From: Patescibacteria group bacterium
Lineage (GTDB): Bacteria > Patescibacteriota > Patescibacteriia > JAXHNJ01
DNA: 64,000 bases
Assembly: GCA_034520665.1 (NCBI GenBank)
Contig: JAXHNJ010000002.1
Location: 282,303-346,302, forward strand
Direction: 5' to 3'
The notes beneath the pieces were generated by a model. The model worked only from the letters and a program-made list of their open reading frames with translations. It ran no database searches and was not told the origin of the DNA. A program made the translations under genes and the position numbers. Positions 6,479 to 63,254 of the stretch are shown in pieces; within the stretch, counting starts at the first letter, position 1, and each line of letters starts with the position of its first letter.

Positions 6479-8881
6479 TTATTTTTTGTTTTTAAGCTTT
6501 TTTTCTGTTTTCAATATATCCAAGGTTGTTTTAATCACTGTATCCGGATTCAGCGACATCGAGTCAATACCTTCCTTGACTAAAAAACGAGCAAATTCGG
6601 GGTAGTCTGAAGGCGCCTGGCCACAGATACCAATTTTACACTTATTCTTCTTGGCTATTTTAATTACCTGACTAACCATTCTTTTGACGGCTTCGTTTCT
6701 TTCATCATAAATATGAGCCACTAAGGATGAGTCACGGTCTACTCCTAAAGTCAATTGAGTTAAATCATTAGAGCCGATAGAAAAGCCGTCAAATATCTTA
6801 GCAAACTCTTCAGCCATAATTACATTAGAAGGGATTTCGCACATGACATAAACTTCTAAACCATCTTGACCTTGTTTCAGGCCATATTTTTTCATAATCT
6901 TAATCACATTTTTTCCCTCTTCCACTGTCCGGCAAAAGGGCACCATAACTTTGAGATTTTTCAGCCCCATCTCTTTTCTTACTTTTTTTAAGGCCTGGCA
7001 CTCCAGTTTAAAAGCGGCTTCATAATTTTTATCGTAATAACGTGAAGCACCGCGCCAGCCGATCATGGGATTGGACTCTTCCGGCTCAAATTCTGAGCCG
7101 CCGATTAAGTTAGCGTATTCATTGGATTTAAAGTCAGACAAACGGACAATTACGTCCTTGGGATAAAAAGCGGCCGCAATCATAGCCACACCCATAGCTA
7201 ATTTGTCTATAAAAAATTCACTTTTATTTTTATAGTCCCGGGTAATTTTTTCAATTTCCTTCTTAGCCTTTTTATCTTTTAATTTTTTATAATTCAGCAA
7301 AGCCAAGGGATGAATTTGAATAAACGAATTAATAATAAATTCTTCCCGGGCTAGCCCGACACCATCGTTAGGAATAAAAGAAGAGTCAAAAGCAATATCC
7401 GGACTACCAATATTCATCATAATTTTGGTTTTTGGTCTTTTTATTTTTTTAAGCCTAGTTTTTTTAACTTTAAAATCAGCCCGACCTTGATAAACAAAGC
7501 CTTTCTCGCCTTCAGCACAGGAAACAGTCACCGTCTGGCCGTTTTTTATTTTTTTAGTGGCTCGACCAGCCCCAACAATACAGGGAATACCCAATTCTCG
7601 GGAAACAATAGCCGCGTGACAGGTACGTCCGCCCTGATCAGTAACAATAGCACTGGCTATTTTCATAATTGGCTCCCAGTCCGGATCAGTCATATCAGTG
7701 ACCAGAATTTGGCCTTTTTTAAAGCTGTGAATATCCTTAGTATTTAAAATTACATTAGCCTCACCTGAAGCAACTTTAGTACCGACCGGTGCTCCCTCAA
7801 TAATTTTTTTACCTTTTTTCTTAATTACATAAGTTTCCAGAATATTTTTGTCTTTTTGTGACTGCACTGTTTCCGGCCGAGCCTGGACTATAAAAAGTTC
7901 ATTAGTCTGGCCGTCTTTAGCCCACTCAATATCCATTGGTTTTTGATAATGTTTTTCAATAGCCACAGTCCATTTAGCTAAAGTTAATATTTCTTGATCT
8001 TCTATAGAATATTTTCTTCTCTTAGCCGTGCTCACATTAACATTTTTAGTGGATTTGCCCTGACCAGAGGTATAAATCATTTTTAAGGCCTTGGTGCCCC
8101 GCTGGCGAGAAATAATAGCCTTATAGCCTTGCTCTAAAGTTGGTTTAAAAACATAAAATTCATCCGGATTAACATTACCCTGGACTACATTTTCTCCCAA
8201 ACCATAAGCACTGGTAATATAAACCGCGTTTTCAAAACCACTTTCAGTATCAATACTAAATATCACTCCCGAAGAAGCTTTGTCCGAGCGCACCATTTTC
8301 TGGACGCCAATAGATAAAGCAATTTCAAAATGGTCAAAGCCTTTGTCTTCACGGTAGGAAATGGCTCGGTTGGTAAAAAGAGAAGCAATACATTTTTTAC
8401 AATATTTTAATAAATCTTTTTGGCCCCGGATATTTAAATAAGTGTCCTGCTGACCGGCAAAAGAGGCGTCTGGCAGATCTTCAGCTGTAGCTGATGAACG
8501 CACGGCCACGTCAACATTCTTTTTATATTCTTTTTCCATTTTTTTATAGGCTTTGATAATAGCCTCGTTAAGCTCGGCTGGAAAATCAGACTTTAGAATT
8601 AATTGGCGCACTTTTTTACCCCGAGCCATTAAGTTTCTCACATTATGAGTATTTAAATCAGACAGAATCTCTTTTATCTCATCTCTAATACCGCTTTCTT
8701 TAAGAAAAAAGCGATAGGCTTCAGCCGTGACCGCAAAACCATTAGGCACATTAATGCCCCTCTTAGTTAGAGTGGCGTACATCTCCCCTAAAGAAGCGTT
8801 TTTACCACCCACCAAAGGTACGTCCTTATTACGCAAATCTTTAAACCATAAAATTAACTCTTTATTTTTCTTTTTTTTCAT
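6479..8881 (-). CDS. ppsA: Phosphoenolpyruvate synthase (pyruvate, water dikinase)
   Basis: It is 800 aa and has the PEP-utilising histidine motif GGRTCHAAIVSRELGIPCIVG. The N-terminal ATP-grasp domain and C-terminal PEP-binding domain are present. Confidence 0.85.
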   Translation of the reverse strand: MKKKKNKELILWFKDLRNKDVPLVGGKNASLGEMYATLTKRGINVPNGFAVTAEAYRFFLKESGIRDEIKEILSDLNTHNVRNLMARGKKVRQLILKSDFPAELNEAIIKAYKKMEKEYKKNVDVAVRSSATAEDLPDASFAGQQDTYLNIRGQKDLLKYCKKCIASLFTNRAISYREDKGFDHFEIALSIGVQKMVRSDKASSGVIFSIDTESGFENAVYITSAYGLGENVVQGNVNPDEFYVFKPTLEQGYKAIISRQRGTKALKMIYTSGQGKSTKNVNVSTAKRRKYSIEDQEILTLAKWTVAIEKHYQKPMDIEWAKDGQTNELFIVQARPETVQSQKDKNILETYVIKKKGKKIIEGAPVGTKVASGEANVILNTKDIHSFKKGQILVTDMTDPDWEPIMKIASAIVTDQGGRTCHAAIVSRELGIPCIVGAGRATKKIKNGQTVTVSCAEGEKGFVYQGRADFKVKKTRLKKIKRPKTKIMMNIGSPDIAFDSSFIPNDGVGLAREEFIINSFIQIHPLALLNYKKLKDKKAKKEIEKITRDYKNKSEFFIDKLAMGVAMIAAAFYPKDVIVRLSDFKSNEYANLIGGSEFEPEESNPMIGWRGASRYYDKNYEAAFKLECQALKKVRKEMGLKNLKVMVPFCRTVEEGKNVIKIMKKYGLKQGQDGLEVYVMCEIPSNVIMAEEFAKIFDGFSIGSNDLTQLTLGVDRDSSLVAHIYDERNEAVKRMVSQVIKIAKKNKCKIGICGQAPSDYPEFARFLVKEGIDSMSLNPDTVIKTTLDILKTEKKLKNKK

Positions 8882-39760: not shown

Positions 39761-39854
39761 AATTATCTTGACTTAATAAATACAATTTTATATATTTAAC
39801 CTTGGTGGCTTTTAAAAAAGCCGCTTTTTTTATTTGTTTTTGAAAAAATCACAA

Positions 39855-46347: not shown

Positions 46348-47379
46348 CTACTCTTCTTCACTCTCTTTAACTGCTTTTAGAATTTCTTTTTGAATTTCTT
46401 TTAATACTTTTGGATTTTCTTTAAGAAGCTGGCGGCTTTTTTCTCGGCCCACTCCCAACTTAGTCTCGCCAAAACTCAAAGTATTACCTGATTTTTTAAC
46501 TACTCCGTATTTCAAGCCAGTATCAATAGCATCCGTTTCTTCAGAAATTCCCTCATTATACATAATATCAAATTCTGTTTGTTTAAAAGGAGCCGCCACT
46601 TTATTTTTAACTACTTTGGCTCTTGTACGGTTACCAATCACTTGCTCGCCTTTTTTAATTTGACCGATTCTTCTGGTTTCTATCCTAACTGAAGAATAAA
46701 ATTTTAAAGCCGTACCACCGGTTGTTGTTCTAGGGTTTCCAAAAAAAACACCAATTCTCATACGTGTTTGGTTGATAAAAATTACCATTGTTTTGGTTTT
46801 AGCCACAATAGAAGTAAGTTTTCGCAAAGCTTGACTCATTAATCTAGCCTGCAAAGCCATATGTTTATCACCCATTTCTCCTTCAATTTCTGCCTTAGGC
46901 GTTAAAGCAGCCACCGAATCAATTACTACTAAATCAATACCTTTTGAACGAACCAGAGTTTCTAAAATCTCCAAGGCTTGTTCTCCGGTATCCGGTTGTG
47001 AGATAAGTAGATCATCAACATTTACACCTATTTTTTTAGCATAGGAAGGATCTAAAGCGTGTTCAGCGTCTATAAAAGCAGCAATACCGCCTTTTTTTTG
47101 GGCTTCAGCCGCTATATGCTGGGCTAAAGTAGTTTTACCTGAAGCTTCGGGTCCAAATATTTCTACCACACGTCCCCGAGGCAAACCGTCAACTCCTAAG
47201 GCAATGTCTAAAGAAAGACAGCCAGTTGGCACCGAAGGGACATCGGTCTTTCGGGTTTCACCAAACTTCATAATAGAGCCGTCACCAAAGCGCTCTTTAA
47301 TTTGATCAATAGCTTCTTTGGCTGCCTCAGCTCGGCTGTTTTTATTTTTCTTTTTTGATTTTTTTGATTTTTTAACCAT
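46348..47379 (-). CDS. recA: Recombinase RecA
   Basis: The Walker A motif [10 protein letters not shown] and the L1/L2 loops are present. There is a C-terminal acidic tail. Confidence 0.95.
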
Positions 47380-47425: not shown

Positions 47426-48106
47426 TTATTCAACATTTTTAAGCATAACTCTTCTAATCACTTTGTTTTCTTCACCTTGTTTTTTATGAGCTGTAATTTC
47501 AATCACATTTACTCCTTCTTTTAATATTATTTCTTCTTTAAAACTGCCGTTTCTCTCTACATCTACCTTCTCACCATTGACTAAAACACTAATTTCTGGT
47601 TCAGTTTGACCTTCTAAAAGTAAACTCTTTTCTGTAGTAATAAATTCCTCAGGTGGGTAATTTATTTTCAGCTTGGGGGGAGCTATAATATGAGTTAACT
47701 CCCATCCTAAGTATAATAGAATAGCTAAAATAAATAAAATTATTATTAGGTTACGTAAATTCTTAGGATTTAAAAAAGGGAATTTTACCTTGCCCTTAGG
47801 CGGCAAATACTGATTACTATCATAGCTGTCAAGTTTCTGATATATCTTTTTTTCATTTTCATAAAGAGCCAATACTTTTTCTTTATTTACTGAAAGAAAA
47901 TCAGCATATTTTTTTAAGAAACTTTTTATATAAACTTCACCGGGTAATTTTTCATAATGACCCTCTTCTAAATATCGAATATACTTTTCAGAAACATTAA
48001 TATTTTCTTCTACTTTTTTTTGACTGTAGCCAGATTCTTGGCGAATTTCCCTTAACTTTTCTCCTAGAGTTTTATCAGCAAAATTCCTTTTTCTAAATTC
48101 GGCCAT
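47426..48106 (-). CDS. rodZ: RodZ-like HTH (XRE) membrane protein
   Basis: An N-terminal HTH (LGEKLREIRQESGYSQKKV) is followed by a TM helix and a C-terminal beta domain. I place the start at MAEFRK. It overlaps the ftsK stop by ~14 nt. Confidence 0.55.
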   Translation of the reverse strand: MAEFRKRNFADKTLGEKLREIRQESGYSQKKVEENINVSEKYIRYLEEGHYEKLPGEVYIKSFLKKYADFLSVNKEKVLALYENEKKIYQKLDSYDSNQYLPPKGKVKFPFLNPKNLRNLIIILFILAILLYLGWELTHIIAPPKLKINYPPEEFITTEKSLLLEGQTEPEISVLVNGEKVDVERNGSFKEEIILKEGVNVIEITAHKKQGEENKVIRRVMLKNVE

Positions 48107-50363
48107 TTTCTTCTTCCTCCTCTTCTTCAAAATCTTCTTGATTTTCTTCTTCCTGATTTTCATCAGAGTTCTCTACTGTTTCCTCGCCGGATAAAGTTTT
48201 ATCTTCCTTGTTTATTAAAACCTCGCGAGGCTTAGATCCATTTTGTGGTCCAATTATTCCTTTTTTCTCCAGAGAATCAAGTATTCGAGCAGCCCGAGCG
48301 TAGCCAATACGCAGACGCCTTTGTAAAAGCGAAGCCGAAGCTTTATTAGCCCTTAAAATCACTTCCTGAGCCTGAGGTAAAAGTTCATCATCACCTAAGT
48401 CCTCCATACTCGAACCTAAGGGAGCGGCCTGGGGTTTTTCCACTATTTCATCTTTGTAATCAACTTCTTTAATATTTTCTTTAACAAAATCAACTACTTT
48501 TTTAACCTCTTTTTCAGAAACATGAGAGCCTTGCAGACGCTTGGGCTGGGAAAGTTCTGAAGAGAGAAAAAGCATGTCCCCTTTACCCAATAATTTCTCA
48601 GCTCCAGACATATCAATAATAGTTCGAGAATCCACCCCCGAAGCCACATTAAAAGCAATACGAGCGGTAATATTAGCTTTAATTAAACCGGTCAAAACAT
48701 TAACTGACGGTCTTTGCGTAGCTAAAACCAGATGAATACCCACCGCTCGGGCCATCTGGGCCAAGCGGATAATAGCCGCTTCTACTTCTGAAGCTGCCAC
48801 AGCCATCAGATCTGCTAATTCATCAATAATTAAAACTATAAAAGGCATGCCATCATCTACTTCCCGATGATAAACATGAATATCCCGCTTACCGCTTTTG
48901 GAAAGGGTTTGAAAACGTTTTTCCATCTCCGCTACTAGCCAACGTAAAGCATTGATAGTTTTTTTAGTATCTGTAATCACAGGGGTTAATAAATAAGGGT
49001 TATCGTTATAAACATTTAACTCCACTCTTTTAGGATCGACTAAAATAAGTTTAAGGTCATCAGGAGAATTCTGATACATTAAGCTTAATATAATTGAATT
49101 AATACAAACACTCTTGCCTGATCCTGTAGCTCCAGCAATTAAAAGATGAGGCATCGGATCAAGACTAGGAATAACCGGCTTACCGGAAACATCCCGACCT
49201 AAAGCAAAACTGAGGTTTGACTTTGATTTTTTGAAATCTTTAGTATCAATTACATCACCCAAATTAACTAGAGCTACCGCCTGGTTAGGTACTTCAATAC
49301 CAACTAATGATTTACCTGGAATAGGCGCTTCAATTCTAATCGGATGGGCTGCCAAAGCCAAAGCAATGTCATTTTGCAGACTAGTTATCTGCGAAAGTTT
49401 AACTCCCTCGGTCGGCTTTAAGGTAAATTGCGTCACTGTCGGACCAACATTTACTTCCGCCATTTCCACTTCAATACCAAAGTTATCCAAAGTTTTTTTA
49501 ATCTTTGTTTTGTTAAGCTCTATATCACCACTTTTTGGCCGATTTGAAAAATTTTCAAGAAGACTGGTCGGAATTTTAATTTTCTGGCCATATTTTTTAA
49601 CTTTTTTCTTAAACAACCCACCTTGTTCTTTTTCTTCCTCTTTCTTGTCTGTTTTATCTTTTTCTTTATCATCAGATTCATCAGAAACAGATTCTTTTTC
49701 AGATTCCTCTTTGTCTTCTTCATCTTTTAACTTTTTTTTCGAAAAACTAGGATGATCATAAACTTCTTTTTCTTTTTTAAAACGGGAGAAAAATGAATTT
49801 AGGCGATAAAACCAGGAGGATAATTTATTTTTTTTCTCTGACAAATTCTTTAAAGAAGTATTAAACATTAAAAGTAAAGAGATAATAAAAGCAGCCAGAA
49901 GAACAATTAAGCTGGCCCAAAAACCCATAATTTTTTGTAAAGGATAGCTAAGAAGTAAGCCGGCATAGCCGCCACCAGCGCCCTCTGATATTCTTTCTAC
50001 AGCCGTTTCAAGATCCAGAAAAATGTGTAAGAGCCCGGAATAGCTTAAAATAAAGAAAAATAAACCTAAATAATTAATACTGCGAATAATATACTTTTCG
50101 GGTTTTAAAAGTAAAAATCCTAAAACCAGTAAAATTATGGGAAAGAAGTATTTACCCCAACCAAAAAAGTAACTTAAAACAGTATCAATAAAACCGCCAA
50201 AACTCCCGGCCACATTAAATAAACTGAGAATACTTAAAACGGCCACTGTAAATAAAACCACCACTACAATGCCGTGTCTGGCTTCTGGTTTTAAAAAGGA
50301 ATCTGTCTTTTCTTCCTTTTGTTTTTTTTCTTTTTTCTGGGATTTTTTCTTTTTTCTAGCCAT
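48093..50363 (-). CDS. ftsK: DNA translocase FtsK/SpoIIIE
   Basis: N-terminal TM helices and a Lys/Glu-rich linker precede the motor domain. The Walker A motif is GATGSGKS. The gamma domain reads LLQRRLRIGYARAARILD. The likely ATG (MARKKKK) is at ~50363. The track starts at an upstream GTG (50384). Confidence 0.9.
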   Translation of the reverse strand: MARKKKKSQKKEKKQKEEKTDSFLKPEARHGIVVVVLFTVAVLSILSLFNVAGSFGGFIDTVLSYFFGWGKYFFPIILLVLGFLLLKPEKYIIRSINYLGLFFFILSYSGLLHIFLDLETAVERISEGAGGGYAGLLLSYPLQKIMGFWASLIVLLAAFIISLLLMFNTSLKNLSEKKNKLSSWFYRLNSFFSRFKKEKEVYDHPSFSKKKLKDEEDKEESEKESVSDESDDKEKDKTDKKEEEKEQGGLFKKKVKKYGQKIKIPTSLLENFSNRPKSGDIELNKTKIKKTLDNFGIEVEMAEVNVGPTVTQFTLKPTEGVKLSQITSLQNDIALALAAHPIRIEAPIPGKSLVGIEVPNQAVALVNLGDVIDTKDFKKSKSNLSFALGRDVSGKPVIPSLDPMPHLLIAGATGSGKSVCINSIILSLMYQNSPDDLKLILVDPKRVELNVYNDNPYLLTPVITDTKKTINALRWLVAEMEKRFQTLSKSGKRDIHVYHREVDDGMPFIVLIIDELADLMAVAASEVEAAIIRLAQMARAVGIHLVLATQRPSVNVLTGLIKANITARIAFNVASGVDSRTIIDMSGAEKLLGKGDMLFLSSELSQPKRLQGSHVSEKEVKKVVDFVKENIKEVDYKDEIVEKPQAAPLGSSMEDLGDDELLPQAQEVILRANKASASLLQRRLRIGYARAARILDSLEKKGIIGPQNGSKPREVLINKEDKTLSGEETVENSDENQEEENQEDFEEEEEEENGRI

Positions 50364-50369
50364 ATGGTT

Positions 50370-50398
50370 CTTATATTTTACCACTTTTTGTCCCTCTT
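50370..50398 (-). promoter_or_regulatory. Putative ftsK promoter
   Basis: On the minus strand it reads TTGCCA-17 nt-TAAAAT, immediately upstream of the ftsK ATG. The same sequence is copied at 51826-51855. Confidence 0.45.
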
Positions 50399-50402
50399 GG
50401 CA

Positions 50403-50437
50403 ATAAAAAAAGGTGTGGAAGTCATTTCTTCCACACC
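50403..50437 (-). terminator. Intrinsic terminator of cassette 1
   Basis: A perfect stem (GGTGTGGAA-N7-TTCCACACC) is followed by TTTTTTTATTG on the minus strand. Confidence 0.65.
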
Positions 50438-50470
50438 AAATTCTTTTGACCAGATCATTGAGTCAAAAGA

Positions 50471-50668
50471 CTAATCACCCCAGTCAAGCGGATCCCAAAG
50501 TTCGAAGGCCAACATCATAAGACATTGTGTTGCCAAACCAGGGTTCCAGAGTACATATTTACATGACTCCGGCATTTCGAACGCCTGGGCAATTGGTCGC
50601 TTTGTAGCAATTGTAGTAATACTGAGAAGCAAAGCTACAATTACTAACATGAGAATCAACTTTTTCAT
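50471..50668 (-). CDS. Small secreted Cys-containing peptide (65 aa), distal gene of cassette 1
   Basis: A signal peptide is present. A strong RBS (AAGGAGGTGA) precedes the ATG by 7 nt. The ATGA start overlaps the upstream stop. Two cysteines are present. Confidence 0.6.
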   Translation of the reverse strand: MKKLILMLVIVALLLSITTIATKRPIAQAFEMPESCKYVLWNPGLATQCLMMLAFELWDPLDWGD

Positions 50669-51270
50669 CGGCTACTCACCTCCTTTGAATTTGAGCGAAC
50701 ATTCACCGGTAAACATTTTAACAACCTTTCCGGTTCATTTCCTTTAAAATCGAATTCAGCAAAAAGTATTGGATTTCCCTTGCTGGTTTTCCAAAGATCA
50801 AGAGAAGGATTAGGAATATAAAAATAATTTTCCAAATCCAACCCAAATATTAATTTATTAGGCGACCTAACAGCAAAGAAATATTCATAGCTTCTAGCTT
50901 GAAGCGTATCACCATCACAAGTGTATTCTAGTATGACAGCACAGCTTTTATTCCAGTAAGTTACTATACTCGATGGAATAATTAATGAAAATCCATAGAA
51001 ATTGCTAGGGCCAGAAAAAAATATATATTTCTGATGCTCTGGTATTCGACTATCTGGAATTTTAGAAAGAAGTCCCATACTTTTGATTCTTTCATATTTT
51101 TCCACAATTTTTGTACCAGGTAAAGCACTTATTATCTCCCAACCAGAATCATCTACATATAAGGGGCGATTGTCTTCCTTTTTACTCCAAGACCAGGAAA
51201 AAGCCATAACTGAAGTGTTAAAAACCATTGCCATAATTATTACTACTATCAAAACACGACTGAACTTCAT
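50665..51270 (-). CDS. Secreted hypothetical protein (201 aa), cassette 1
   Basis: A signal peptide is present. An AAGGAG RBS precedes the start. No family was recognised. Confidence 0.6.
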   Translation of the reverse strand: MKFSRVLIVVIIMAMVFNTSVMAFSWSWSKKEDNRPLYVDDSGWEIISALPGTKIVEKYERIKSMGLLSKIPDSRIPEHQKYIFFSGPSNFYGFSLIIPSSIVTYWNKSCAVILEYTCDGDTLQARSYEYFFAVRSPNKLIFGLDLENYFYIPNPSLDLWKTSKGNPILFAEFDFKGNEPERLLKCLPVNVRSNSKEVSSR

Positions 51271-51321
51271 AACTAAACTCCTTTTCTCAAAAGATGAAAA
51301 ATGAACTTTTCAAAGAACTAA

Positions 51322-51480
51322 TTTATAAAAAAGCCTCCAAAAGTGAGGCTTTCAATAATAATCCAAATTATGATGTGTCGGTTGCGCTACTTGCTTCTTG
51401 TAACCAATACTCTCTTTAGATAAGAAAGAAAAGCGCCCAAATTTTGATTACAATTCAAAGCCTCACTAGCTTTATTCTAA
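51322..51480 (-). ncRNA. Candidate structured leader or sRNA, copy B
   Basis: A TTGACA-17-TAAAAT promoter (51487-51515, minus strand) drives a conserved ~125 nt body. The terminator is AAAGCCTC-N7-GAGGCTTT plus TTTTTT. Confidence 0.4.
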
Positions 51481-51540
51481 CAATTTATTTTATTTCTTTT
51501 AAATTATTTTGTCAAATAAAAAGTATCATTAACCTAAAAA

Positions 51541-51565
51541 TAGGGCTAATATTAGCCCTATTTTA
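51541..51565 (-). terminator. Copy of the rpoC terminator palindrome
   Basis: The sequence AATAGGGCTAATATTAGCCCTATT is present. Confidence 0.5.
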
Positions 51566-51584
51566 TATATAAATATATTTTTTA

Positions 51585-51810
<226 letters not shown>

Positions 51811-52126
51811 CTAGCCATATGGTTCTTATATTTTACCACTTTTGTCCCTCTTGGCAATAAAAAAAGGTAATGTGCACAGACATATGGCGGTTTTCTAGGG
51901 TAAGTATTACCCTAGATAATATGTGTATAAATATGTTAAAAACAATTAAAGAGAAAAATTAAAACGTCTAAAACCTATTATTAAAAAGTTTAGGAAGATA
52001 AATAGCTAATTATTGAAATAGAAGTTAAAAATTTAATAATAATCAAATTAAGTTAATATACTAGAAAAATTAAGATACAAAATTAGCTTATAAAATATAT
52101 ATTATAATAATCTATTACATTATATT

Positions 52127-52165
52127 TTAAATAAAAAAGTCCTGCTAGCAAATCTAGCAGGACTT
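52127..52165 (-). terminator. Intrinsic terminator of cassette 2
   Basis: A perfect 11 bp stem (AGTCCTGCTAG-N5-CTAGCAGGACT) is followed by TTTTTTATTT on the minus strand. Confidence 0.7.
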
Positions 52166-52172
52166 ATAACTA

Positions 52173-52379
52173 CTACACTTGTTGCTTCTTTTTTATATAA
52201 AACAAACAAGTGGAAAAAATGATTAAGGAAAGCAAATAATAAGGTGACAATTGAGAATATGCAAATGTTACCCCAATAGCCACACCTAGAAAAGTAACGA
52301 TAAATTTTTTGCCAGCTATTCGCTGGCTTATATAGATACCCAATATAATACATACTATTAATAATATAATATTTGGCAT
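52173..52379 (-). CDS. Small 2-TM membrane protein (68 aa), distal gene of cassette 2
   Basis: A GGAG RBS lies 5 nt before the ATG. Two hydrophobic helices are present. Confidence 0.55.
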   Translation of the reverse strand: MPNIILLIVCIILGIYISQRIAGKKFIVTFLGVAIGVTFAYSQLSPYYLLSLIIFSTCLFYIKKKQQV

Positions 52380-52433
52380 CTTATCTCCTTTCTAATTTTA
52401 ATAAAAAATACTAAAACTATACAGAAAAAATTA

Positions 52434-53159
52434 TTAATCGCCAAATATTATATCATCAGCCGCATGGGAACAGAGGCCACCGACTACTCCGGCAACAATA
52501 AGATTACCACCTGTTCCACTACCAGCTGCTGCTCCACTAGCCCCATCAACAACAACAGTAACGGTAAATCTAAGTAATCTCTTACCCCATCCTCTTAATA
52601 GATTACGACTATCAATTTTTATATTGGGGATTTCTTCAGCTGAATGACGAGTAAGCCAAAATTCAGCTGAGTGAATACTTATATCACATAAACTGTATAA
52701 TATTGTGCCTGGCTTAGGAGCTCCATACTTAGCACACATATTTTTGTAGATTAGATCTAAATTTACTGCTGTAGCCTCATTACTAAATCTATCCCACCAC
52801 TTATACTCTTCTGGAGATAGAATAGATTTTACTAATTCTATAGGGTCTTGTTTGGCCATATTACGTCCTCGCTCAAGAGCTTCTCGCACTTGCTCACGAG
52901 TCAAGGGATCCTGATTATACTTATCCGTAATTTTTTTAGCCTCTTGGTAAAGTATCTCCTCCTCCTCTAAGGCTGTGGTCTTCATAAGATTTGAAGAATT
53001 TTCATCAAGCTCATTATATACATTGGTAAGAAATTCATTATGAATTTCACCAATACCCCTGTTTGTAACATCAGCTTCCGGAGAAATTACATTTTCTCCT
53101 TCACATCCAAAAAGAAAAAATAAACTGAAAATTACAAAAACTAGACTAAGATGTTTCAT
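52434..53159 (-). CDS. Secreted lipoprotein (241 aa) with a C-terminal Gly-zipper-like hydrophobic segment, cassette 2
   Basis: It has the lipobox LFFLFGCEG. A GGAGGT RBS precedes the start. The C-terminus reads GASGAAAGSGTGGNLIVAGVVGGLCSHAADDIIFGD. Confidence 0.6.
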   Translation of the reverse strand: MKHLSLVFVIFSLFFLFGCEGENVISPEADVTNRGIGEIHNEFLTNVYNELDENSSNLMKTTALEEEEILYQEAKKITDKYNQDPLTREQVREALERGRNMAKQDPIELVKSILSPEEYKWWDRFSNEATAVNLDLIYKNMCAKYGAPKPGTILYSLCDISIHSAEFWLTRHSAEEIPNIKIDSRNLLRGWGKRLLRFTVTVVVDGASGAAAGSGTGGNLIVAGVVGGLCSHAADDIIFGD

Positions 53160-53269
53160 TTTTTACCTCCATAAAAAATGAATAATTAAACGAATTCATA
53201 ATTAAGAGATTCTCAGATATAAATCTCTATATCTAGAAAAATTTACCTCCTTCCTTTTTCAAAGTTCAA

Positions 53270-53433
53270 TGTTATAAAAAAGCCTCCAAAAGTGAGACTT
53301 TGAGCTGTAGTCAAGTATTTGAACTGGGTGTCGGTTGCGCTACTTGCTTCTTGTAACCAATACTCTCTTTAAATAAGAAAGAAAAGCGCCCAAATTTTGA
53401 TTACAATTCAAAGCCTCACTAGCTTTATTCTAA
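53270..53433 (-). ncRNA. Candidate structured leader or sRNA, copy A
   Basis: A TTGACA-17-TATAAT promoter (53440-53468, minus strand) drives the transcript. The 5' segment AGTGAGGCTTTGAA is complementary to the left arm of the 3' terminator hairpin (53277-53301), so it could act as an anti-terminator. Confidence 0.45.
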
Positions 53434-53483
53434 CAATTTATTATATTCCTCTAAACTAAAATTGTCAAATAGTTAATACACAT

Positions 53484-53515
53484 TAAATAAAAATAGGGCT
53501 AATATTAGCCCTATT
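53484..53515 (-). terminator. Intrinsic terminator of the rpoBC operon
   Basis: A perfect palindrome (AATAGGGCTAATATTAGCCCTATT) is followed by TTTTATTT on the minus strand, immediately after the rpoC stop. Confidence 0.75.
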
Positions 53516-53538
53516 TTATATATAAATATATTTTTTAT

Positions 53539-56500
53539 TTAAGTTTTACGATAGCCGGTACCAGCCGGAATTAATTTACCAATAATTACATTTTCTTTCA
53601 GGCCTCTGAGTTTATCAACCTTGCCAGTTATGGCTGCGTCAATTAATACCCGGGCTGTTTCCTGAAAAGAGGCTGCTGACAAAAAGCTTTCCGTACTCAA
53701 AGAAGCTTTGGTAATACCCAGTAATAAAGGTTTAACTTTTGCTGGTTGTTTATTTTCTTTTTCGGCTTTTTCATTTTCTTTACGTACGATATTTAAATCA
53801 GTTACTTCGCCAATCAACCGCTCCGTATCACCCGGATCTCTAACCAAAACACGGGAAAACATTTGTTTAACAATTACTTCCACATGTTTATTATTAAGTT
53901 TCTGACCTTGAGAAGAATATATATACTGAATTTCTTTCATAATATATTTTTGGGCCGCTTCACTTCCGGAAAGTCTATAATAATCTTTAAGATCAAGACT
54001 ACCTTCAGTTAACTGCTGTCCTGGAGTAACTAAATCTCCCTCTTTTATCCAAAGACCATGACCAACTGGCGGTACATACTCTTTAACTGAATCTTCTTCA
54101 TATTGTAAAATTATTTTTTTATCATCTTCAATTTTAATTACTCCATCATGCGAAGACTTTATTTTCTTTTTATTTTTTTCATATATTAAATCTTTAACTT
54201 TTACTTTATCACCGTCTTTTACTTTAAGATTATCCTTGTCAATCTTTTTTCTTTTCTTAAGCAATACTTCTTCTTTTTCTTCAGTATAATCAATTTTTAT
54301 TATTTTATTATCACCTTCCTCAGTTATATGAGCTACTCCTTTAACTTCTGAAATTACGGCCGCCTTTTTCACATGCCTAGCTTCAAATAATTCTTCCACC
54401 CGAGGCAGCCCCTGAGTAATATCCTGACCGGCTACACCGCCAGTGTGAAAAGTTCTCATAGTTAGCTGGGTACCTGGTTCACCAATACTTTGTGCCGCTA
54501 TAATACCGACAGCCGTACCAATTTCAACCAACTTATTATAAGACAAATCATAACCATAGCATTTCTGACAGACACCTCTTTGCGCCTTACAAGTTAGAAG
54601 GCTACGAATATGTATTTTTTCGGGATCAGCTTTTTTAATTTTTTCTGCTTCTTTTTCATTAATCAAAGTATTTTTCTTTACTACTACTTTTTTTGTCTTG
54701 GGATTTTTAACATCCTTCAGCAAATAACGTCCTAAAGCTCTTTCAGATAAATTTCCTCCCATTTCTTCCGCTTCTTCTTTGGTTATTATTAAACCTTCCT
54801 TATCTTTACAATCTTTTTCATTAACCACAATCTCCTGCGCTACATCAATTAAACGACGGGTCAAATAACCCGCATTAGCTGTCCGAAGAGCTGTATCTGA
54901 TAGTCCCTTCCTAGCCCCATGAGTAGAAATAAAATATTCCAAAACATCAAAGCCCACTTTAAAATTACCCTTAACTGGTAATTCAATAGTTTCACCAGCC
55001 GGATTAGTCACCAGACCTTTCATACCCATCATCTGGGTTATCTGCCCCCAGGAACCGCGAGAACCAGATTCAATCATAGCATAAACTGGACCAAATTTAT
55101 CCAAAGATTCCTTACAAACTTCCTGTATATTTTCTTTGGTTTTAGCCCAATTTTCAATCACTTTTATCTGCCTTTCTCTATCTGTTAAAAGACCAGCTTT
55201 ATAATGTTCTTCAATGCCTTTGACTTTATCTTCCGCTTCTTCAATCAATTCCTGCTTTTTTTCAGCTTCAACTAAATCATCCATACCCCAAGAAATACCA
55301 GAACGAGTAAGATATTCAAAAGAAAACTCTTTAATATTATCTAAAAGCACAACTGTCTTTTCACGACCTAATATAGATATAGCCTCTGAAATTAAATTAG
55401 AAAGCTTCTTTTTGTTCATAACTTCATTAATGTATTGAAGTTTTTTCGGCAAAATAGAATTAAATATAACACGACCAACCGTGGTTTCTACTAATTTAGT
55501 GTTTATAAGTACTTTGATTGTTTCATGAAAATGAATTTTATCAATTTCATAAGCTAACAAAGCTTCTTCTTTTGAAGAATAATGGTTAATTTTCTTCTTG
55601 GCTTTCTTTTTTATAGTAAGATAGTAACAGCCCAAAACAATATCCTGGGAAGGAGTAGTTACTGGTGAGCCAGTAGCCGGTTTTAATAAATTATTAGTAG
55701 AGAGCATTATATTTTTTGCTTCCTTTTTGGCTTGTTCGGTTAAAGGCAGATGAACAGCCATTTGATCACCGTCAAAATCAGCATTAAAAGCGGCACAAAC
55801 TAAAGGATGTATTTGAATAGCTTTACCTTCTATTAATATTGGCTGAAAGGCCTGAATACCTAAACGGTGAAGAGTTGGAGCACGATTTAATAAAACATAA
55901 GCATCTTTTATTACTTCTTCTAAAATATCCCAAACCTCCGGACGATCAGCTTCAATAAAGCGTCCAGCTGAACGAACATTATGCACATATTCTCTTTTTA
56001 TCAATTGAGAAATAACAAAAGGCCTAAATAATTCCAAAGCCATATGCTTGGGAATACCACATTGGTTTAATTTTAAGTGTGGTCCAATAACAATAACAGA
56101 ACGGCCGGAATAATCAACACGTTTACCTAATAAGTTTTGGCGAAAACGACCTTGCTTACCTTTTAGAACATCGGCAATTGATTTAAGAGTTCTTTTCTGT
56201 CCAGTAGAAGCAGTTACCGTTTTACCTTTTCTAGCTCCGTTATCAATCAGAGCATCAACGGCTTCCTGTAGCATTCTTTTTTCGTTACGACGTATCACTT
56301 CCGGAGCATTTAATTCAATTAATTTTTTCAGACGATTATTACGATTTATCACCCTTCGATATAAGTCATTTAGGTCAGAAGTAGCAAAGCGACCACCGTC
56401 AAGCTGTACCATTGGTCTTAAGTCCGGCGGAATAATGGGAACAACGGTTAATATCATCCATTCTGGTTTTATATTATTTTCTTTTAAATTTTTAAATAAT

Positions 56501-57396
56501 CTTAACCTTCTAGAAATTTTCTTTTTCTTATTTTTAGCTGCTCCTTCAAATTCATCTTCTAACTCTTTTATCAGTTTATCTAAATCTATTTCTTTAAGAA
56601 GTTTTTGTAGAGCTTCAGCACCAATACCCGCCTCAAAAACATGGCCATATTTTATAGATAAATCCTGATATTTATTTTCCGAAATTATAAGTTTTGGCTC
56701 TAATTCTTTTAATTCTTTTTTCGCTAAATCGACAGTTTCTTCCAAGCTTCTTAATTCTTCTTTTTTGGCTTCAGCGTTAGCCTTTAATTCTTCAGAGGTT
56801 TTTTCTTCAAGTTGTTTCTTTTTTTCTTCATCATCCGTTTTTGTAATTTCTTCATTATTAGTTTGTTTAATTTTTTGGCGGCGTCTTTTGAATTCTTCTT
56901 CAATTTTCTTAAGCTTGCCCTGATATTCCTTATCAATTTGTTCCAGGGTTTCCTCTCTGGCATTTTCGTCCACAGAAGTAATAATAAAATTAGCAAAATA
57001 AACTACTTTTTCCAGATTCTGTATAGAAAGATTAAGGACTAGACCAATCTTTGAAGGTACACCACGTAAAAACCAAATATGTGAAGTCGGAGCCGCTAAT
57101 TTAATATGACCCATTCTCTCTCTTCTTACTATTGATCGAGTTACTTCCACTCCGCACTTATCACAGACTATACCTTTGTAACGAATTTTTTTATATTTTC
57201 CGCAATAACATTGCCAATCTTTGGTTGGTCCAAAAATTCTTTCACAGAAAAGACCGTCTTTTTCTGGTTTTTGAGTCCGGTAATTAATAGTTTCTGGCCG
57301 TGTAACTTCCCCATGAGACCAGCCTAAAATTTCTTCTGGTGAAGCCAGTTTTAATCTTATTGCTTTAAAGTTTAAATTTTTTGCTTCCGGTATCAT
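53539..57396 (-). CDS. rpoC: DNA-directed RNA polymerase subunit beta'
   Basis: It is 1285 aa with the zinc-finger cysteines and the NADFDGD catalytic motif. Confidence 0.97.
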   Translation of the reverse strand: MIPEAKNLNFKAIRLKLASPEEILGWSHGEVTRPETINYRTQKPEKDGLFCERIFGPTKDWQCYCGKYKKIRYKGIVCDKCGVEVTRSIVRRERMGHIKLAAPTSHIWFLRGVPSKIGLVLNLSIQNLEKVVYFANFIITSVDENAREETLEQIDKEYQGKLKKIEEEFKRRRQKIKQTNNEEITKTDDEEKKKQLEEKTSEELKANAEAKKEELRSLEETVDLAKKELKELEPKLIISENKYQDLSIKYGHVFEAGIGAEALQKLLKEIDLDKLIKELEDEFEGAAKNKKKKISRRLRLFKNLKENNIKPEWMILTVVPIIPPDLRPMVQLDGGRFATSDLNDLYRRVINRNNRLKKLIELNAPEVIRRNEKRMLQEAVDALIDNGARKGKTVTASTGQKRTLKSIADVLKGKQGRFRQNLLGKRVDYSGRSVIVIGPHLKLNQCGIPKHMALELFRPFVISQLIKREYVHNVRSAGRFIEADRPEVWDILEEVIKDAYVLLNRAPTLHRLGIQAFQPILIEGKAIQIHPLVCAAFNADFDGDQMAVHLPLTEQAKKEAKNIMLSTNNLLKPATGSPVTTPSQDIVLGCYYLTIKKKAKKKINHYSSKEEALLAYEIDKIHFHETIKVLINTKLVETTVGRVIFNSILPKKLQYINEVMNKKKLSNLISEAISILGREKTVVLLDNIKEFSFEYLTRSGISWGMDDLVEAEKKQELIEEAEDKVKGIEEHYKAGLLTDRERQIKVIENWAKTKENIQEVCKESLDKFGPVYAMIESGSRGSWGQITQMMGMKGLVTNPAGETIELPVKGNFKVGFDVLEYFISTHGARKGLSDTALRTANAGYLTRRLIDVAQEIVVNEKDCKDKEGLIITKEEAEEMGGNLSERALGRYLLKDVKNPKTKKVVVKKNTLINEKEAEKIKKADPEKIHIRSLLTCKAQRGVCQKCYGYDLSYNKLVEIGTAVGIIAAQSIGEPGTQLTMRTFHTGGVAGQDITQGLPRVEELFEARHVKKAAVISEVKGVAHITEEGDNKIIKIDYTEEKEEVLLKKRKKIDKDNLKVKDGDKVKVKDLIYEKNKKKIKSSHDGVIKIEDDKKIILQYEEDSVKEYVPPVGHGLWIKEGDLVTPGQQLTEGSLDLKDYYRLSGSEAAQKYIMKEIQYIYSSQGQKLNNKHVEVIVKQMFSRVLVRDPGDTERLIGEVTDLNIVRKENEKAEKENKQPAKVKPLLLGITKASLSTESFLSAASFQETARVLIDAAITGKVDKLRGLKENVIIGKLIPAGTGYRKT

Positions 57397-57407
57397 ATAT
57401 TAATCAA

Positions 57408-60400
57408 TTATTTTTTGCTTTTTTTATCGGCTTCTTTTTCATCAGCTTTACCTATCTTTCCTGTTTTTGTCCCTGATCTATTATCTTCTGATTTTCTCTC
57501 TTCTTTAATCAATTCAACATCCAAAGCTAGGCCCTTAAGCTCTCTGACTAAAACATTAAATGATTCTGGTACATTAATTTTGTTTATTGATTCACCCTTA
57601 ATTACTGCCTCATAAGCTTTGGAACGTCCCGGCACATCATCTGATTTAATAGTCAGAATTTCCTGCAAGGTATAAGCGGCCCCATAGGCTTCTAGAGCCC
57701 AGACTTCCATTTCCCCAAAGCGCTGACCGCCAAATTGTGCTTTACCGCCAAGAGGTTGTTGGGTGACTAAAGAATAGGGACCAATTGAACGCTGATGAAT
57801 TTTATCTTCAACCATATGATTTAGTTTCAACATATAAATATAACCAACCATAATATCCTGATCAAATTTTTTGCCAGTACGTCCATCAATAAGCTTTAAT
57901 TTACCACTTTCAGAATAACCGGCCTTTTTTAATTCTTTTTTGATATATTTTTCCGGAATTCCGTCTAAAGCCGGGCTGGCTACCTTATAACCCAGTTTTT
58001 TGGCTGCTAATCCAATATGAGTTTCCAAAACCTGCCCCAAATTCATACGCGAAGCAATACCTAAGGGATTTAAAATAATATCTACGGGCGTGCCATCTTC
58101 AAGAAAAGGTAAATCTTCCTGAGCTACCACGCGGGAAATAACACCTTTATTACCGTGGCGGCCGGCCATTTTATCTCCTACTTGAATTTTACGTTGCTGA
58201 GCTACTGAAACTTCTATTTGTTTAATCACACCGGCCGGCAGTTTGTCACCTTTATCCCGAGAAAATATTTTTATATTAACAACCTTGCCCTGCTCACCAT
58301 GTTCCAAATAAAGTGACGAATCCTTAACGTCTTTAGCTTTTTCACCAAAAATTGCTCTTAATAATTTTTCTTCGGCTGACAATTCAGTTTCACCTTTGGG
58401 AGTAATTTTACCGACTAGAATATCACCCGAGGAAACTTTAGCCCCGATGCGAATTACCCCTTCTTCATCTAAATCTTTTAGTTTTTCTTCACTGACATTA
58501 GGAATATCACGGGTAACTACTTCCGGCCCAATTTTGGTATCACGTACATCTACTGAATAATTTTCTATATGAATAGAAGTATAATAATCTTCACGCACCA
58601 AGCGCTCTGATATCAAAATAGCATCCTCATAATTTCCACCTTCCCAAGACATAAAAGCGACCAGTACATTTTGTCCCAGAGATAATTCACCGTTTTCAGT
58701 AGCTGCTCCATCAGCAATGATATCTCCTTTTTTTATTTTATCCTTTCGGTTAACTATTGGTTTTTGATTAATACAAGTGGAAGCATTTGATCGGGAAAAT
58801 TTTCTTAAAGGGTATTCAACTAAATTATCTTTTTCTTCTTCCAAGATAGTAATTTTATCGCCGGTCACATTTTCTACTTTTCCGCTTACCTCACTAACTA
58901 CCACCTGGCCAGAGTCTTTAGCCGCTCTCATTTCTACTCCAGTGGCCACTACTGGCGCCTTGGGATTAATCAAAGGAACAGCCTGACGTTGCATATTTGA
59001 ACCCATTAAAGCCCTAACCGCATCATCATTTTCTAAAAAAGGAATTAAAGAAGTGGAGACTGAAACAATCTGTTTGGGCGAAACATCCATTAAATCAATA
59101 ACATTAACCGAATCCATAACCGGTTTACCGTATTTTCGGACCTCTGCTCTGTCATTAATAAAATAACCATCTTCATCATAAGGGGTAGTAGCCGCCGTAG
59201 TCACATAATGTTCTTCCTCAAAAGCATCCAAGCTGACTATTTCATCAGTTACCCGAGATTTAACCGGTATTTTTTTCAAACTAGTTTTGACTATTTCTTT
59301 AGCTTTTTCTTGAGTTATTTTATCACCTGATTTTACTATTATTTCCTTAGCTTCAGGATCTTTAATATCTTCTCGGGCTATTTCCCCTTCTATCTCTGTT
59401 ACTTTATTAATTGGATCATGTTTAACCTTCCTGAAAGAAGTTTCAATAAAGCCAAAATCATTAATATGAGCATAACTGGCTAGATGACCCACCAGACCGA
59501 TATTGGGACCTTCCGGCGTAGCAATCGGACAAATACGGCCGTAGTGAGTACGATGTACATCGCGCACATCAAAACCAGCTCTTTCCCGAGAAAGACCTCC
59601 CGGCCCCATAGCAGACAGACGACGTTTATGTTCTAGTTCAGCCAAAGGATTAGTCTGGTCCATAAACTGTGAAAGCTGAGAAGACATAAAAAATTCTTTG
59701 ACTACACCAATAATTGGACGAGCGTTAACTAATTGATTGGGCGTTAAACTGCTAATATCTTTGGTGCTCATTCTATCCTTAACTATTCTTTCCATTCTAG
59801 CTAAGCCCACCCGGAATTTATTCTGTACCAATTCGCCAATAGCTCTTACCCGACGGTTACCTAAATGATCAATATCATCAGAGCCTTTTTGAGAATTATT
59901 CAAACGAATAATTTCTTTTATAATATTTATTAGATCTTTCTTTTTTAAAACACGGTGTTCTTTAGTTAGGGGATATTTAGTATCAAATCTTTGATTTAAT
60001 TTATAACGTCCAACCTTGGCAAAGTCGTAACGGTCAAAAGAAAAAAACATTTTAAAAATTAAGTCACGGGCGTTATCAACCGTAGCCAAGTCACCCGGGC
60101 GTATTCTTTTATAAACTTCTTTCAATCCTTCACTTTCGTTACGTGAAACATCTTTTTCTATAGTCGCTTCAATATATTTATCTGATGGATGATTATCAAC
60201 ATCCTTAAATAAATCTATAATTTCTTCATTAGAAGAATAGCCAAAAGCCCGAAACAAAGCACTAATCGGCACTTTTCTTTTGCGGTCTATTTTTACATTA
60301 ATTATATTTTTTTTATCCGTTTCAATTTCCAGCCAAGCTCCGCGATTAGGAATTATCTTAGCCCCATAAAAATTTCTTCCCTTTTCAAAGTTAGAAGTAA

Positions 60401-60821
60401 AAAAAACGCCAGCCGAACGGATAAGCTGACTAACAATGGCTCTTTCAATACCATTAATAATGAAGGTGCCTCGGTTTGTCATTAATGGAAAATCACCCAG
60501 AAAAATTTCTTGTTCTTTAATTTCACCAGTTTTCTTATTATGTAGGCGGGTCTGTACACGCAGAGGTGCTTCATAAGTTACATTTTTATTCTTAGCTTTA
60601 ACTTCATCAAATTTTGGTTCGTCAATATAATAATCAAAAAAATCGAGCTCAAGATCACGGCCAATAAAATCTTTTATTGGCGAAATTTCCTCAAAAAGCT
60701 CTTTTAAACCTTCACGAAAAAACCAGTCATAAGATTTTTTTTGGATTTCAATTAGATGAGGCAGCTCTATGGCTTCGTGAAGTTTGGTAAATACTTTTCT
60801 TCCTTGATATTTATCTGACAT
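57408..60821 (-). CDS. rpoB: DNA-directed RNA polymerase subunit beta
   Basis: It is 1137 aa with conserved RpoB regions. It lies 11 nt upstream of rpoC. Confidence 0.97.
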
Positions 60822-62792: not shown

Positions 62793-63254
62793 CTAGTTCT
62801 TGCTCTTTGTTTTAAAAAATAGCCAGGCCTTTTTACCAAAAGAGCTGCCTTTAGGCTTTACCAAGACATATTCACCCTTTAATTTATTTCCTTTTAAAAT
62901 AAATTTAAATTCATTTTTCTTTTTTTCTTCCATTTTGTATCGGCCCTTATCCCATATTTCTACTTGCCCGGCGCCATAATTGCCTTGGGGAATTTCGCCG
63001 GCAAAATTAATATAATCAATTGGATGATCCTCAACCTGCATAGCCAGACGTTTGATCCCGGCCTTTTGGGGCGGTTTTTTGGGAATAGCCCAGGATTTTA
63101 AAACACCATCCATTTCCAGGCGAAAATCATAATGAAGATTAGTAGCGGCGTGTTTTTGGATAACAAAACGATTTTCTTTTTTCTTCTCCTTTTTACCTTT
63201 CGGCTCCGGACTTTGTCTAAAATCCCTTTTTTGCTTGTATTTTTTTAAAGACAT
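62793..63254 (-). CDS. Stand-alone LigD-type 3'-phosphoesterase (PE) domain protein
   Basis: The motif RFVIQKHAATNLHYDFRLEMDGVLKSWAIPK matches the LigD PE domain signature. Confidence 0.7.
   Translation of the reverse strand: MSLKKYKQKRDFRQSPEPKGKKEKKKENRFVIQKHAATNLHYDFRLEMDGVLKSWAIPKKPPQKAGIKRLAMQVEDHPIDYINFAGEIPQGNYGAGQVEIWDKGRYKMEEKKKNEFKFILKGNKLKGEYVLVKPKGSSFGKKAWLFFKTKSKN

Follow-up and report, generated by a model that had tools for sequence, protein, structure and literature searches.

What has happened between rpoC and ftsK in a Patescibacteria genome in which the same leader module occurs twice, each time in front of different genes, and what does this leader do? The locus lies in a stretch of 64,000 nucleotides (nt), hereafter the window (positions 282,303 to 346,302 of contig JAXHNJ010000002.1, assembly GCA_034520665.1), taken from the 698,002-bp contig of a metagenome-assembled genome (MAG) registered as "Patescibacteria group bacterium". 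The minus strand holds every gene of the region, in the order rpoB, rpoC, a gene for a lipoprotein of 241 amino acids (aa), a 68-aa gene, an rpoC remnant, a gene for a 201-aa secreted protein, a 65-aa gene and ftsK; the genes, promoters, riboswitch parts and terminators given below lie on that strand of the window. The 241-aa and 68-aa genes are referred to as cassette 2 and the 201-aa and 65-aa genes as cassette 1. We consider it likely that each cassette consists of a sigma-70 promoter, a riboswitch of the cyclic di-GMP (c-di-GMP) class II with its terminator, an exported-protein gene, a small partner gene and a final terminator, that the riboswitch is an OFF switch, and that two alleles of the locus have been joined here.

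The original prediction for this DNA, made from the sequence and its open reading frames (ORFs), called the leader in each module merely structured and thereby missed its nature. The leader is probably a c-di-GMP-II-class riboswitch (Rfam family RF01786) with c-di-GMP as its predicted ligand, and this changes what the locus is. Aptamer A (53320..53426; E 9.1e-8) and aptamer B (51368..51474; E 9.3e-8) each match RF01786 over the full model with 44.7 bits (E 1.6e-6 in a search of the whole window), and they are the only matches to this family within the 64 kb. The core nucleotides, namely the GA...UGA k-turn, the UUGGGCNC loop and the GNGCAACCG 3' strand, are found in both window copies and in all relatives, and the AACCG/UGG and GCGC/GCGC pseudoknot is kept in all copies together with the GA/UGA k-turn nucleotides. 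The matched aptamer is preceded, at a distance of ∼13-14 nt, by a consensus promoter and followed by a terminator and an anti-aptamer strand.

Covariation was evaluated on eight aptamers arranged according to the Rfam architecture plus the pseudoknot, with 500 shuffles and with slid controls. In P1, P2, P3 and the pseudoknot, 97% of the cells pair and 10 of the 21 pairs have changed on both sides. None of the 500 shuffles reached the observed covariation, and the slid controls paired at 23-51%. Covarying positions include the pseudoknot pairs 44-104 and 46-102, the strands of which read GCGC/GCGC, ACGC/GCGU or ACAC/GUGU. Conservation within the window is selective: the two aptamers are 99% identical, against 62% for the adjacent promoter spacer and 43% for the expression platform.

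Homologues of both cargo families in other genomes are preceded by aptamers of the same family. In the 201-aa family, leaders with an RF01786 aptamer were found in loci L082 (47.6 bits), L083 and L084 (48.6 bits) and L100 (49.1 bits). Homologues of the 241-aa protein have tandem aptamers in L087 and L089 (67.1 and 77.4 bits) and in L093 (67.8 and 71.9 bits), all four scores being above the Rfam gathering score of 53.5 bits. These tandem riboswitches occupy positions 545-796 (L087), 737-988 (L089) and 7654-7867 (L093), each aptamer having its own terminator. A further leader, L106, was found by searching metagenomes of the Joint Genome Institute (JGI) with a 19-mer of the aptamer; the same 19-mer gave 0 matches in viral contigs, and four of the five metagenome matches were discarded as chance occurrences without an aptamer.

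The c-di-GMP-II riboswitch class was reportedly described by Lee and colleagues in 2010. The window leaders share with it P1, the GA/UGA k-turn with P2, P3, the loop-to-3'-strand pseudoknot and the AA bulge, as well as their position in the 5' untranslated region (UTR) of genes whose products are exported or surface proteins, with an intrinsic terminator downstream. The tandem copies upstream of the homologous genes in L087, L089 and L093 are likewise in line with this class, as tandem c-di-GMP-II copies have been reported upstream of surface-anchor genes (PMC9481103). The host, on the other hand, sets the present case apart, being a Patescibacteria genome: among the literature searched there is no report of c-di-GMP riboswitches in Patescibacteria, which is not proof of their absence.

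Downstream of each aptamer lies a platform from which a switching mechanism can be read. In platform A, the anti-aptamer (antiterminator) strand (53292..53328) is complementary to the aptamer 5' half, and the riboswitch terminator AAAGUCUCAC-UUUUG-GAGGCUUUUUU (53274..53301) forms only when the aptamer core is sequestered. Expression platform B (51326..51377) consists of an anti-aptamer strand (51343-51377) overlapping a terminator (51326-51352), the inverted repeat being 28 nt at 86%. The anti-aptamer duplex has a calculated energy of −32.1 kcal/mol in A (shuffled, −12.1 ± 2.8) and of −28.4 kcal/mol in B (shuffled, −10.4 ± 2.7), a value reached by 0 of 500 shuffled sequences in either case. 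In all six leaders compared (both window copies, L106, L082, L083 and L100), the platform is complementary to the whole aptamer 5' half, the duplexes reaching −26 to −32 kcal/mol, whereas shuffled platforms gave about −10 to −12 and none of 500 was as good. This complementarity is retained although no more than 43% of positions agree between platforms A and B, and its persistence through different sequences implies selection on switching.

The last nucleotides of the anti-aptamer strand, AAAG(C/U)CUCAC, double as the 5' arm of the terminator hairpin AAAGCCUC-ACUUUUG-GAGGCUUUUUU. Folding without constraints pairs this arm with GUGAGGCUUU of the aptamer (inner P1 and the P2 5' strand); once the aptamer core is kept from pairing, the terminator hairpin appears in its place. 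In the ligand-free state, the 5' half of the aptamer would thus pair over ∼30 nt with the downstream platform, including the 5' arm of the terminator; with this arm captured, no terminator would form and the genes would be transcribed. Binding of the ligand, most probably c-di-GMP, would lock the aptamer (P1, k-turn/P2, P3 and pseudoknot), and the locked aptamer would release the terminator arm, upon which transcription would stop. Because a ligand-stabilized aptamer frees the terminator arm, thermodynamic folding predicts that the leader is an OFF switch, the ligand favouring termination. Synthesis of the exported or surface factors encoded downstream would then follow the second-messenger state of the cell.

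We turn to the repeat in which these leaders are embedded. Repeats were mapped by blastn of positions 50200-53800 against the 64-kb window, and promoter and terminator positions were obtained from a sequence scan. Positions 53256-53762 and 51307-51809 (507 and 503 nt) are 92.2% identical over 510 columns with nine gaps, a match far too long and too close (500 nt, 92% identity) to be due to chance. The module of about 0.5 kb announced in the original prediction is therefore present twice and with the contents listed there (rpoC 3' end, palindrome, σ70 promoter, leader and terminator); its identity had been put too high, at about 95%, its ends shift slightly and its rpoC part measures 224 nt. 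Copy A (53256..53762) comprises the rpoC 3' end, the last 224 nt of the gene (53539-53762) forming the first part of the repeat, then the rpoC terminator palindrome AAAATAGGGCTAATATTAGCCCTATTTT (53490..53517), a promoter matching the consensus at 12 of 12 positions (TTGACA, 17 nt, TATAAT; 53440..53468), the riboswitch and its terminator. Copy B contains the corresponding 224-nt rpoC fragment (51586..51809), examined by codon analysis, a terminator palindrome (51537..51564), identified from the alignments and as an inverted repeat, and a promoter with 11 of 12 matches (TTGACA, 17 nt, TAAAAT; 51487..51515) of a type shared with L106 and L082. The segment from the rpoC stop codon to the palindrome in copy A is identical at 51 of 52 positions (98%) in copy B and at 79% in L106, and the palindrome itself is the same in all three. 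Divergence between A and B is distributed unevenly, identity amounting to 98% in the rpoC fragment, 98% in the terminator palindrome, 62% in the promoter, 99% from the transcription start to the end of the aptamer, 43% in the platform, 96% in the terminator and 43% in the 5'UTR.

A second, shorter repeat adjoins the first. Positions 51800-51868 reproduce 50345-50414 (69 of 70 identical, with one T indel) and carry a copy of the ftsK promoter (51830-51857), the ftsK 5' end and its first six codons. Both repeat families overlap in the 10 nt TTTTCTTTTT (51800..51809), a microhomology common to rpoC (53753-53762) and ftsK (50345-50354) that is followed by CGG in the former and by TCT in the latter. 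On account of this overlap, the second unit opens with the ftsK promoter, ATG and six codons fused to rpoC, yielding a chimeric ftsK::rpoC ORF of 24 codons that starts at ATG 51818 (51818-51744) and is out of frame with rpoC. The fused ftsK copy, the junction inside a shared run and the chimeric scar, all of which had been proposed beforehand, are hence confirmed, the scar being an out-of-frame stub. A remnant of 53 codons (51586-51747) is identical to the RpoC C-terminus, and the four differences between the copy B fragment and the intact gene are all synonymous third-position transitions.

In the relatives, cassettes of the same kind are found with other cargo. The rpoC part of L106, the terminal 513 nt of the gene, is 83% identical to the window at the nucleotide level; it is followed by the same terminator palindrome, a B-type promoter, a riboswitch with the extra hairpin described below, the same 5'UTR and the same first seven codons (MKFSRVL). 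Its cargo is a 221-aa protein with only 31% identity to the 201-aa one (E 4e-18; hhalign probability 99%) and a different, 62-aa two-Cys secreted peptide, and L106 closes with the same terminator hairpin as window positions 50402-50440 (87%, blastn). From this structure it follows that a relative has a single cassette at this position, with conserved flanks around strongly diverged cargo. In L107, a third cargo variant is likewise framed by a shared 5'UTR and signal peptide (82% over 148 nt) and by the common 3' hairpin (88%, blastn). The rpoC-ftsK interval is thus a variable site, probably one for self-contained expression cassettes, and the earlier suggestion of a variable locus is corroborated by both relatives.

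Cassettes also occur far outside this lineage. In a Krumholzibacteriota MAG (L082; GCA_034520215.1, contig JAXHNR010000002.1, 7750-8603), 870 nt spanning promoter, riboswitch and 201-aa gene are 88.7% identical to the window, the small partner gene being missing there. The copy looks like a recent cross-phylum transfer from an AT-rich donor. The segment is a 33% G+C island in flanks of mostly 43-45%, rising to 56-61% beyond ∼1.4 kb downstream, and it adjoins a PemK toxin-antitoxin pair. In an Anaerolineales MAG (L099, 3700-3920), a homologous leader stands upstream of a 56%-identical 201-aa homologue; the promoter, GGGGCTTTGGCCTGTAATC...TTTGGGC and the terminator are recognizable, and the aptamer core (GAA, the GCGC pseudoknot and AACCG) is eroded and is no longer detected by Rfam. 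About 150 nt upstream of the cassette promoter in L083 (7560-7660) lie a sequence resembling a tRNA 3' end, GGTGCCGGAGGTGGGAATCGAACCCAC, and a degenerate second copy of it, which may be the remnant of an integration site; ARAGORN found no intact tRNA in this fragment.

How did two such cassettes come to stand in series? Our preferred answer is not a plain duplication but that two alleles of the locus were joined in one step. The 241-aa lipoprotein pair would have come from one allele and the 201-aa pair from the other, and an illegitimate crossover in the 10-nt microhomology would have linked ftsK codons 3-6 of one allele to the rpoC 3' end of the other. The scar of such a join would be a dead piece of the rpoC 3' end and a surplus ftsK promoter, rpoC and ftsK themselves remaining intact. 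The most likely route would be homology-facilitated illegitimate recombination, or Campbell-type insertion, of sister-strain DNA taken up by the cell, with the crossover anchored by homology in rpoC or occurring after circularization. Both microhomology tandem duplication and homology-facilitated illegitimate recombination are known from naturally transformable bacteria such as Acinetobacter and pneumococcus. The present locus resembles those cases in its contiguous head-to-tail repeat, its new 10-nt microhomology junction and a possible anchor in rpoC, and differs from them in the unrelated cargo of its two units and in its mosaic divergence. Natural competence and an enrichment in DNA-uptake genes have been reported for Patescibacteria (PMC11665869).

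The microhomology-mediated tandem duplication that had been put forward for this locus accounts for the head-to-tail repeat and the 10-nt junction, but not for units that are unequal in cargo and 43-99% identical by segment. Since the cargos differ and the divergence is a mosaic, plain duplication does not suffice by itself; there must also have been an additional event, or else two alleles recombined. That all four rpoC differences are synonymous is to be expected if both copies diverged as working rpoC alleles. L106 and L082 have the promoter, platform and 5'UTR of module B, which makes module A the derived form; moreover, the 241-aa pair stands behind a cassette 1-type riboswitch instead of the tandem type that accompanies 241-aa homologues elsewhere. 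Three points count against our preference for a single step: four synonymous differences are few, an attempt to polarize them with L106 gave an ambiguous answer, this outgroup being too diverged at synonymous sites, and one-step recombination between alleles and duplication followed by allelic replacement fit the data alike.

A purely intragenomic course of events is possible, albeit on the unlikely side. It would begin with a microhomology tandem duplication from the rpoC 3' end to the ftsK 5' end, for which the head-to-tail repeat and the 10-nt junction are the very product expected; afterwards the 241-aa pair would have taken the place of the cargo, 5'UTR and 3' terminator of the upstream unit, and divergence would have arisen in the promoter spacer and platform of that unit. 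This course would also explain the upstream riboswitch, which is of the cassette 1 type because module A derives from the B-type leader seen in L106 and L082, and the near-identity of the palindrome segment (98%) and the aptamer (99%) could reflect gene conversion between the copies. It requires, however, at least two further events, namely the replacement of the cargo and a divergence confined to promoter spacer, platform and 5'UTR, and a neutral rpoC fragment should have gained non-synonymous changes too, whereas all four are synonymous.

Regarding the cargo, the four ORFs of 201, 65, 241 and 68 aa exist as originally described and form two unrelated cargos, each with a terminator of its own (52165-52137 and 50437-50412). 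Cassette 2 encodes the 241-aa lipoprotein (52434..53159; MDZ7798755.1, U5L76_04030), with lipobox LFGC (Cys19), and a 68-aa small multi-pass membrane protein (52173..52379), and it ends in a terminator with a 12-bp stem and a T run (52137..52165). The 241-aa family counts 62 representatives at 50% clustering. Conserved features are the lipobox Cys19, a His (H40) in GxxHNEFL, WW, SSAEFW and a C-terminal segment LRFxVxVxVDG...GGxVGGLASxGADxxLFG, and the AlphaFold2 (AF2) model (predicted local distance difference test, pLDDT, 80) is all-helical with a C-terminal Gly/Ala-rich helical hairpin. Pfam searches with 32 members of the family returned nothing, and tblastn found no match to the protein in plasmid or phage collections. 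A small multi-pass membrane partner also follows the 241-aa homologues in L085, L087 and L093. In L085 (6400-6470) a 47%-identical homologue without an aptamer stands directly downstream of a sigma-54 enhancer-binding protein, and its upstream region contains a sigma-54-like element, TGGCAT-N5-ATGC; this module may be under a different regulatory input.

Cassette 1 encodes the 201-aa secreted beta-rich protein (50665..51270; MDZ7798754.1, U5L76_04020) and a 65-aa pre-peptide (50471..50668), the start of which overlaps the upstream stop (ATGA) and which consists of a signal peptide and a two-Cys peptide of ∼36 aa ending in FELWDPLDWGD; its terminator hairpin (50412..50437) is conserved in L106 and L107. 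The 201-aa family has nine members, and the AF2 model (pLDDT 79) is a beta-rich fold without a convincing neighbour in PDB. No match to the 201-aa protein was found by tblastn in the plasmid collection, and an exact-sequence look-up returned no record. The two-Cys partner is conserved in L083, L099, L100 and L101, stop and start codons always overlapping. An 'AFRLWDPF' motif in the N-terminus of P0049 was considered as a link between the two cassette types and rejected, as it stems from an ORF over-called through the 5'UTR. Because their partners are conserved in other organisms, both cargos represent fixed two-gene modules for exported products. Judging from known c-di-GMP-II regulons, among whose members are adhesins, pili and surface anchors (PMC11477304, PMC9481103), they are putative surface or secreted factors.

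The original prediction had compared the cargos to toxin/immunity loci, and the idea that they are polymorphic, bacteriocin-like pairs of a large exported toxin and a small immunity partner deserves consideration: cargo is hypervariable between conserved flanks, a small partner gene follows directly downstream, and the 241-aa helical bundle with its Gly/Ala-rich hairpin is combined with a small multi-pass membrane protein. We nevertheless regard it as unlikely. The four cassette proteins gave only noise in Pfam, NCBIfam, PADLOC and PHROGs, with no toxin, immunity or defence family matched, and no sequence match in PDB; the cassette 1 partner is itself secreted (signal peptide, two Cys) and hence atypical of an immunity protein, and the Krumholzibacteriota copy lacks a partner entirely.

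The locus is not an integron, in spite of the integron-like organization suggested earlier. Integron cassettes and the present ones have in common that small exchangeable units stand in series at one site. In contrast to integrons, there is no integrase, attI or attC here, neither an integrase nor a transposase was found among the neighbours of the window locus, and every cassette has its own promoter, of consensus type, its own riboswitch and its own terminator, the ends being ordinary G+C hairpins with a T run and not attC. Instead, the locus resembles allelic cassette loci exchanged through conserved flanks. Capsule, O-antigen, bacteriocin and pherotype loci are replaced in this manner. Shared with these are a conserved 5' flank from the leader to the first signal-peptide codons, a 3' terminator hairpin, strongly divergent cargo and differing alleles in related genomes (L106 and L107), while the nature of the 5' flank (a riboswitch), the unit size of ∼1.2 kb and the additional occurrence at unrelated sites in other phyla are different.

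Several observations speak against the riboswitch assignment or its polarity. Both aptamers remain below the Rfam gathering threshold (44.7 vs 53.5 bits), a shortfall caused by the weak P1 and by 25 nt inserted into the P3 loop, where they form a 7-8-bp hairpin; P1 has only three firm pairs, P2 includes a G-A mismatch, and a few conserved positions deviate (U30, U32 and G55 of the model). A regular-expression search of the 64-kb window revealed no GGDEF, EAL, HD-GYP or PilZ motif, a result uninformative for the remaining 91% of the genome. The class II riboswitches characterized in C. difficile switch ON (PMC11477304), as opposed to the OFF switch predicted here with its anti-aptamer helix of ∼30 nt. 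The low score, the extra P3-loop hairpin and the short P1 thus set these leaders apart from the known class as well. The leader fails the formal gathering score, and it agrees with RF01786 in structure, position and comparative record.

These deviations could mean that the leaders keep the c-di-GMP-II fold but sense another ligand, or that they have decayed into constitutive attenuators. The sub-threshold score, the 25-nt insertion, the P2 mismatch and the altered conserved loop positions would all fit, the same Rfam clan contains variant families with a c-di-GMP-II fold, each search left out a lower-scoring match of that clan, and the Anaerolineales homologue has a visibly eroded aptamer in an otherwise homologous leader. 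Even so, we hold this to be quite improbable, considering that the best clan match is the canonical family and no variant, that the pseudoknot and k-turn nucleotides are retained throughout, that the aptamer is 99% conserved between copies against 43-62% in the neighbouring segments, and that anti-aptamer complementarity is preserved through differing sequences.

A contig from an independent assembly, Logan contig L001 (SRR26473340), equals window positions 53357-51868 at 100% and breaks off within each of the two repeats, which is how a k-mer (de Bruijn) graph behaves where a repeat is real; it stops short of the ftsK::rpoC junction, which counts against our reading. That the assembler or chimeric reads concatenated two single-cassette strain haplotypes is nonetheless very improbable, even though the source is a MAG, the units look allelic (synonymous-only rpoC differences, variable cargo) and L001 halts at both repeat edges, because the junction is a new adjacency sharing only 10 nt, far below the k-mer or overlap length on which any assembler joins, so that reads containing it must exist, because the 698-kb contig has no N runs, and because the junction has the form of a biological microhomology event, clean, within an oligo-T/C run and with both flanking genes intact.

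At this locus, the probable riboswitch and its cross-phylum spread weigh more than the duplication itself. Regulation in Patescibacteria, alternatively called the candidate phyla radiation (CPR), is almost unexplored, and a natural riboswitch responding to a ligand would offer direct access to second-messenger signalling in such reduced cells. The field has asked for parts for inducible expression in Patescibacteria (PMC11665869), and the riboswitch could be used as a native one. Furthermore, two uncharacterized exported-protein families, each with a fixed small partner, would belong to a c-di-GMP-II regulon across several phyla, the lipoprotein family with its 62 representatives thereby being placed in such a regulon. 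A compact unit of promoter, riboswitch, genes and terminator appears to move between phyla and to be swapped at a fixed site without a recognizable mobility gene, and the duplication scar would retain the junction of such an acquisition event. A far-reaching version of this view, which we offer as a long shot, is that the cassette 1-type leader constitutes a distinct subclass of the c-di-GMP-II fold (extra P3 hairpin, altered positions, 30-nt anti-aptamer) through which an ultrasmall, probably host-dependent cell reads a cyclic dinucleotide that it possibly does not make itself, switching hypervariable secreted effector pairs for host interaction; if true, the 88.7%-identical copy in the co-occurring Krumholzibacteriota genome would mark the host partner or a shared gene pool.

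The rpoB gene occupies 57408-60821 and rpoC, encoding 1285 aa, 53539..57396 (from the ORF list; relatives by tblastn). The ftsK ORF extends over 48093-50384 with a probable start at ATG 50363 (48093..50403 including its promoter at 50375-50403, found by promoter scan), and its product carries the Pfam FtsK_4TM, alpha, SpoIIIE and gamma domains. SSB, EF-P, RecA, a RodZ-like protein, FtsK, RpoC, RpoB, a Mur ligase, LigD_N and UPF0047 are encoded in the neighbourhood. Among GTDB representative genomes, the nearest rpoC by tblastn is likewise from Patescibacteria, at 56% protein identity; with a best match this distant, synteny could not be compared via rpoC relatives, and L002 and L003, obtained from that search, gave no c-di-GMP-II match.

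In GenBank, the rpoC-ftsK region carries locus tags U5L76_04020 to U5L76_04030. The accessions of the 201-aa and 241-aa proteins are consecutive, with one locus tag between them. Because of these consecutive accessions, and going by the numbering only, the 68-aa gene (52173-52379) probably has no GenBank annotation, and the intervening tag is probably the rpoC pseudogene fragment 51586-51809. Specific to the cassette 2 unit is an AT-rich spacer (51869..52136, 19% G+C), in which a perfect hairpin, CTAGGGTA-agtat-TACCCTAG, is found at 51891-51927 on the plus strand; this hairpin gives a weak match to the ssNA-helicase RNA motif (28.9 bits vs a gathering score of 41.5). Elsewhere in the window, positions 39782-39827 (minus strand) match the eukaryotic histone 3' UTR stem-loop of Rfam (37.8 vs a gathering score of 34), almost certainly a chance hairpin in a bacterial genome. 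Among the ORFs scanned in the window, no Ku protein and no ligase domain were seen. A stand-alone protein with a LigD 3'-phosphoesterase domain, a component of end-joining repair (62793-63254, minus strand), and RecA (46348-47379, minus strand) are both encoded at most ∼10 kb from the rearranged locus.

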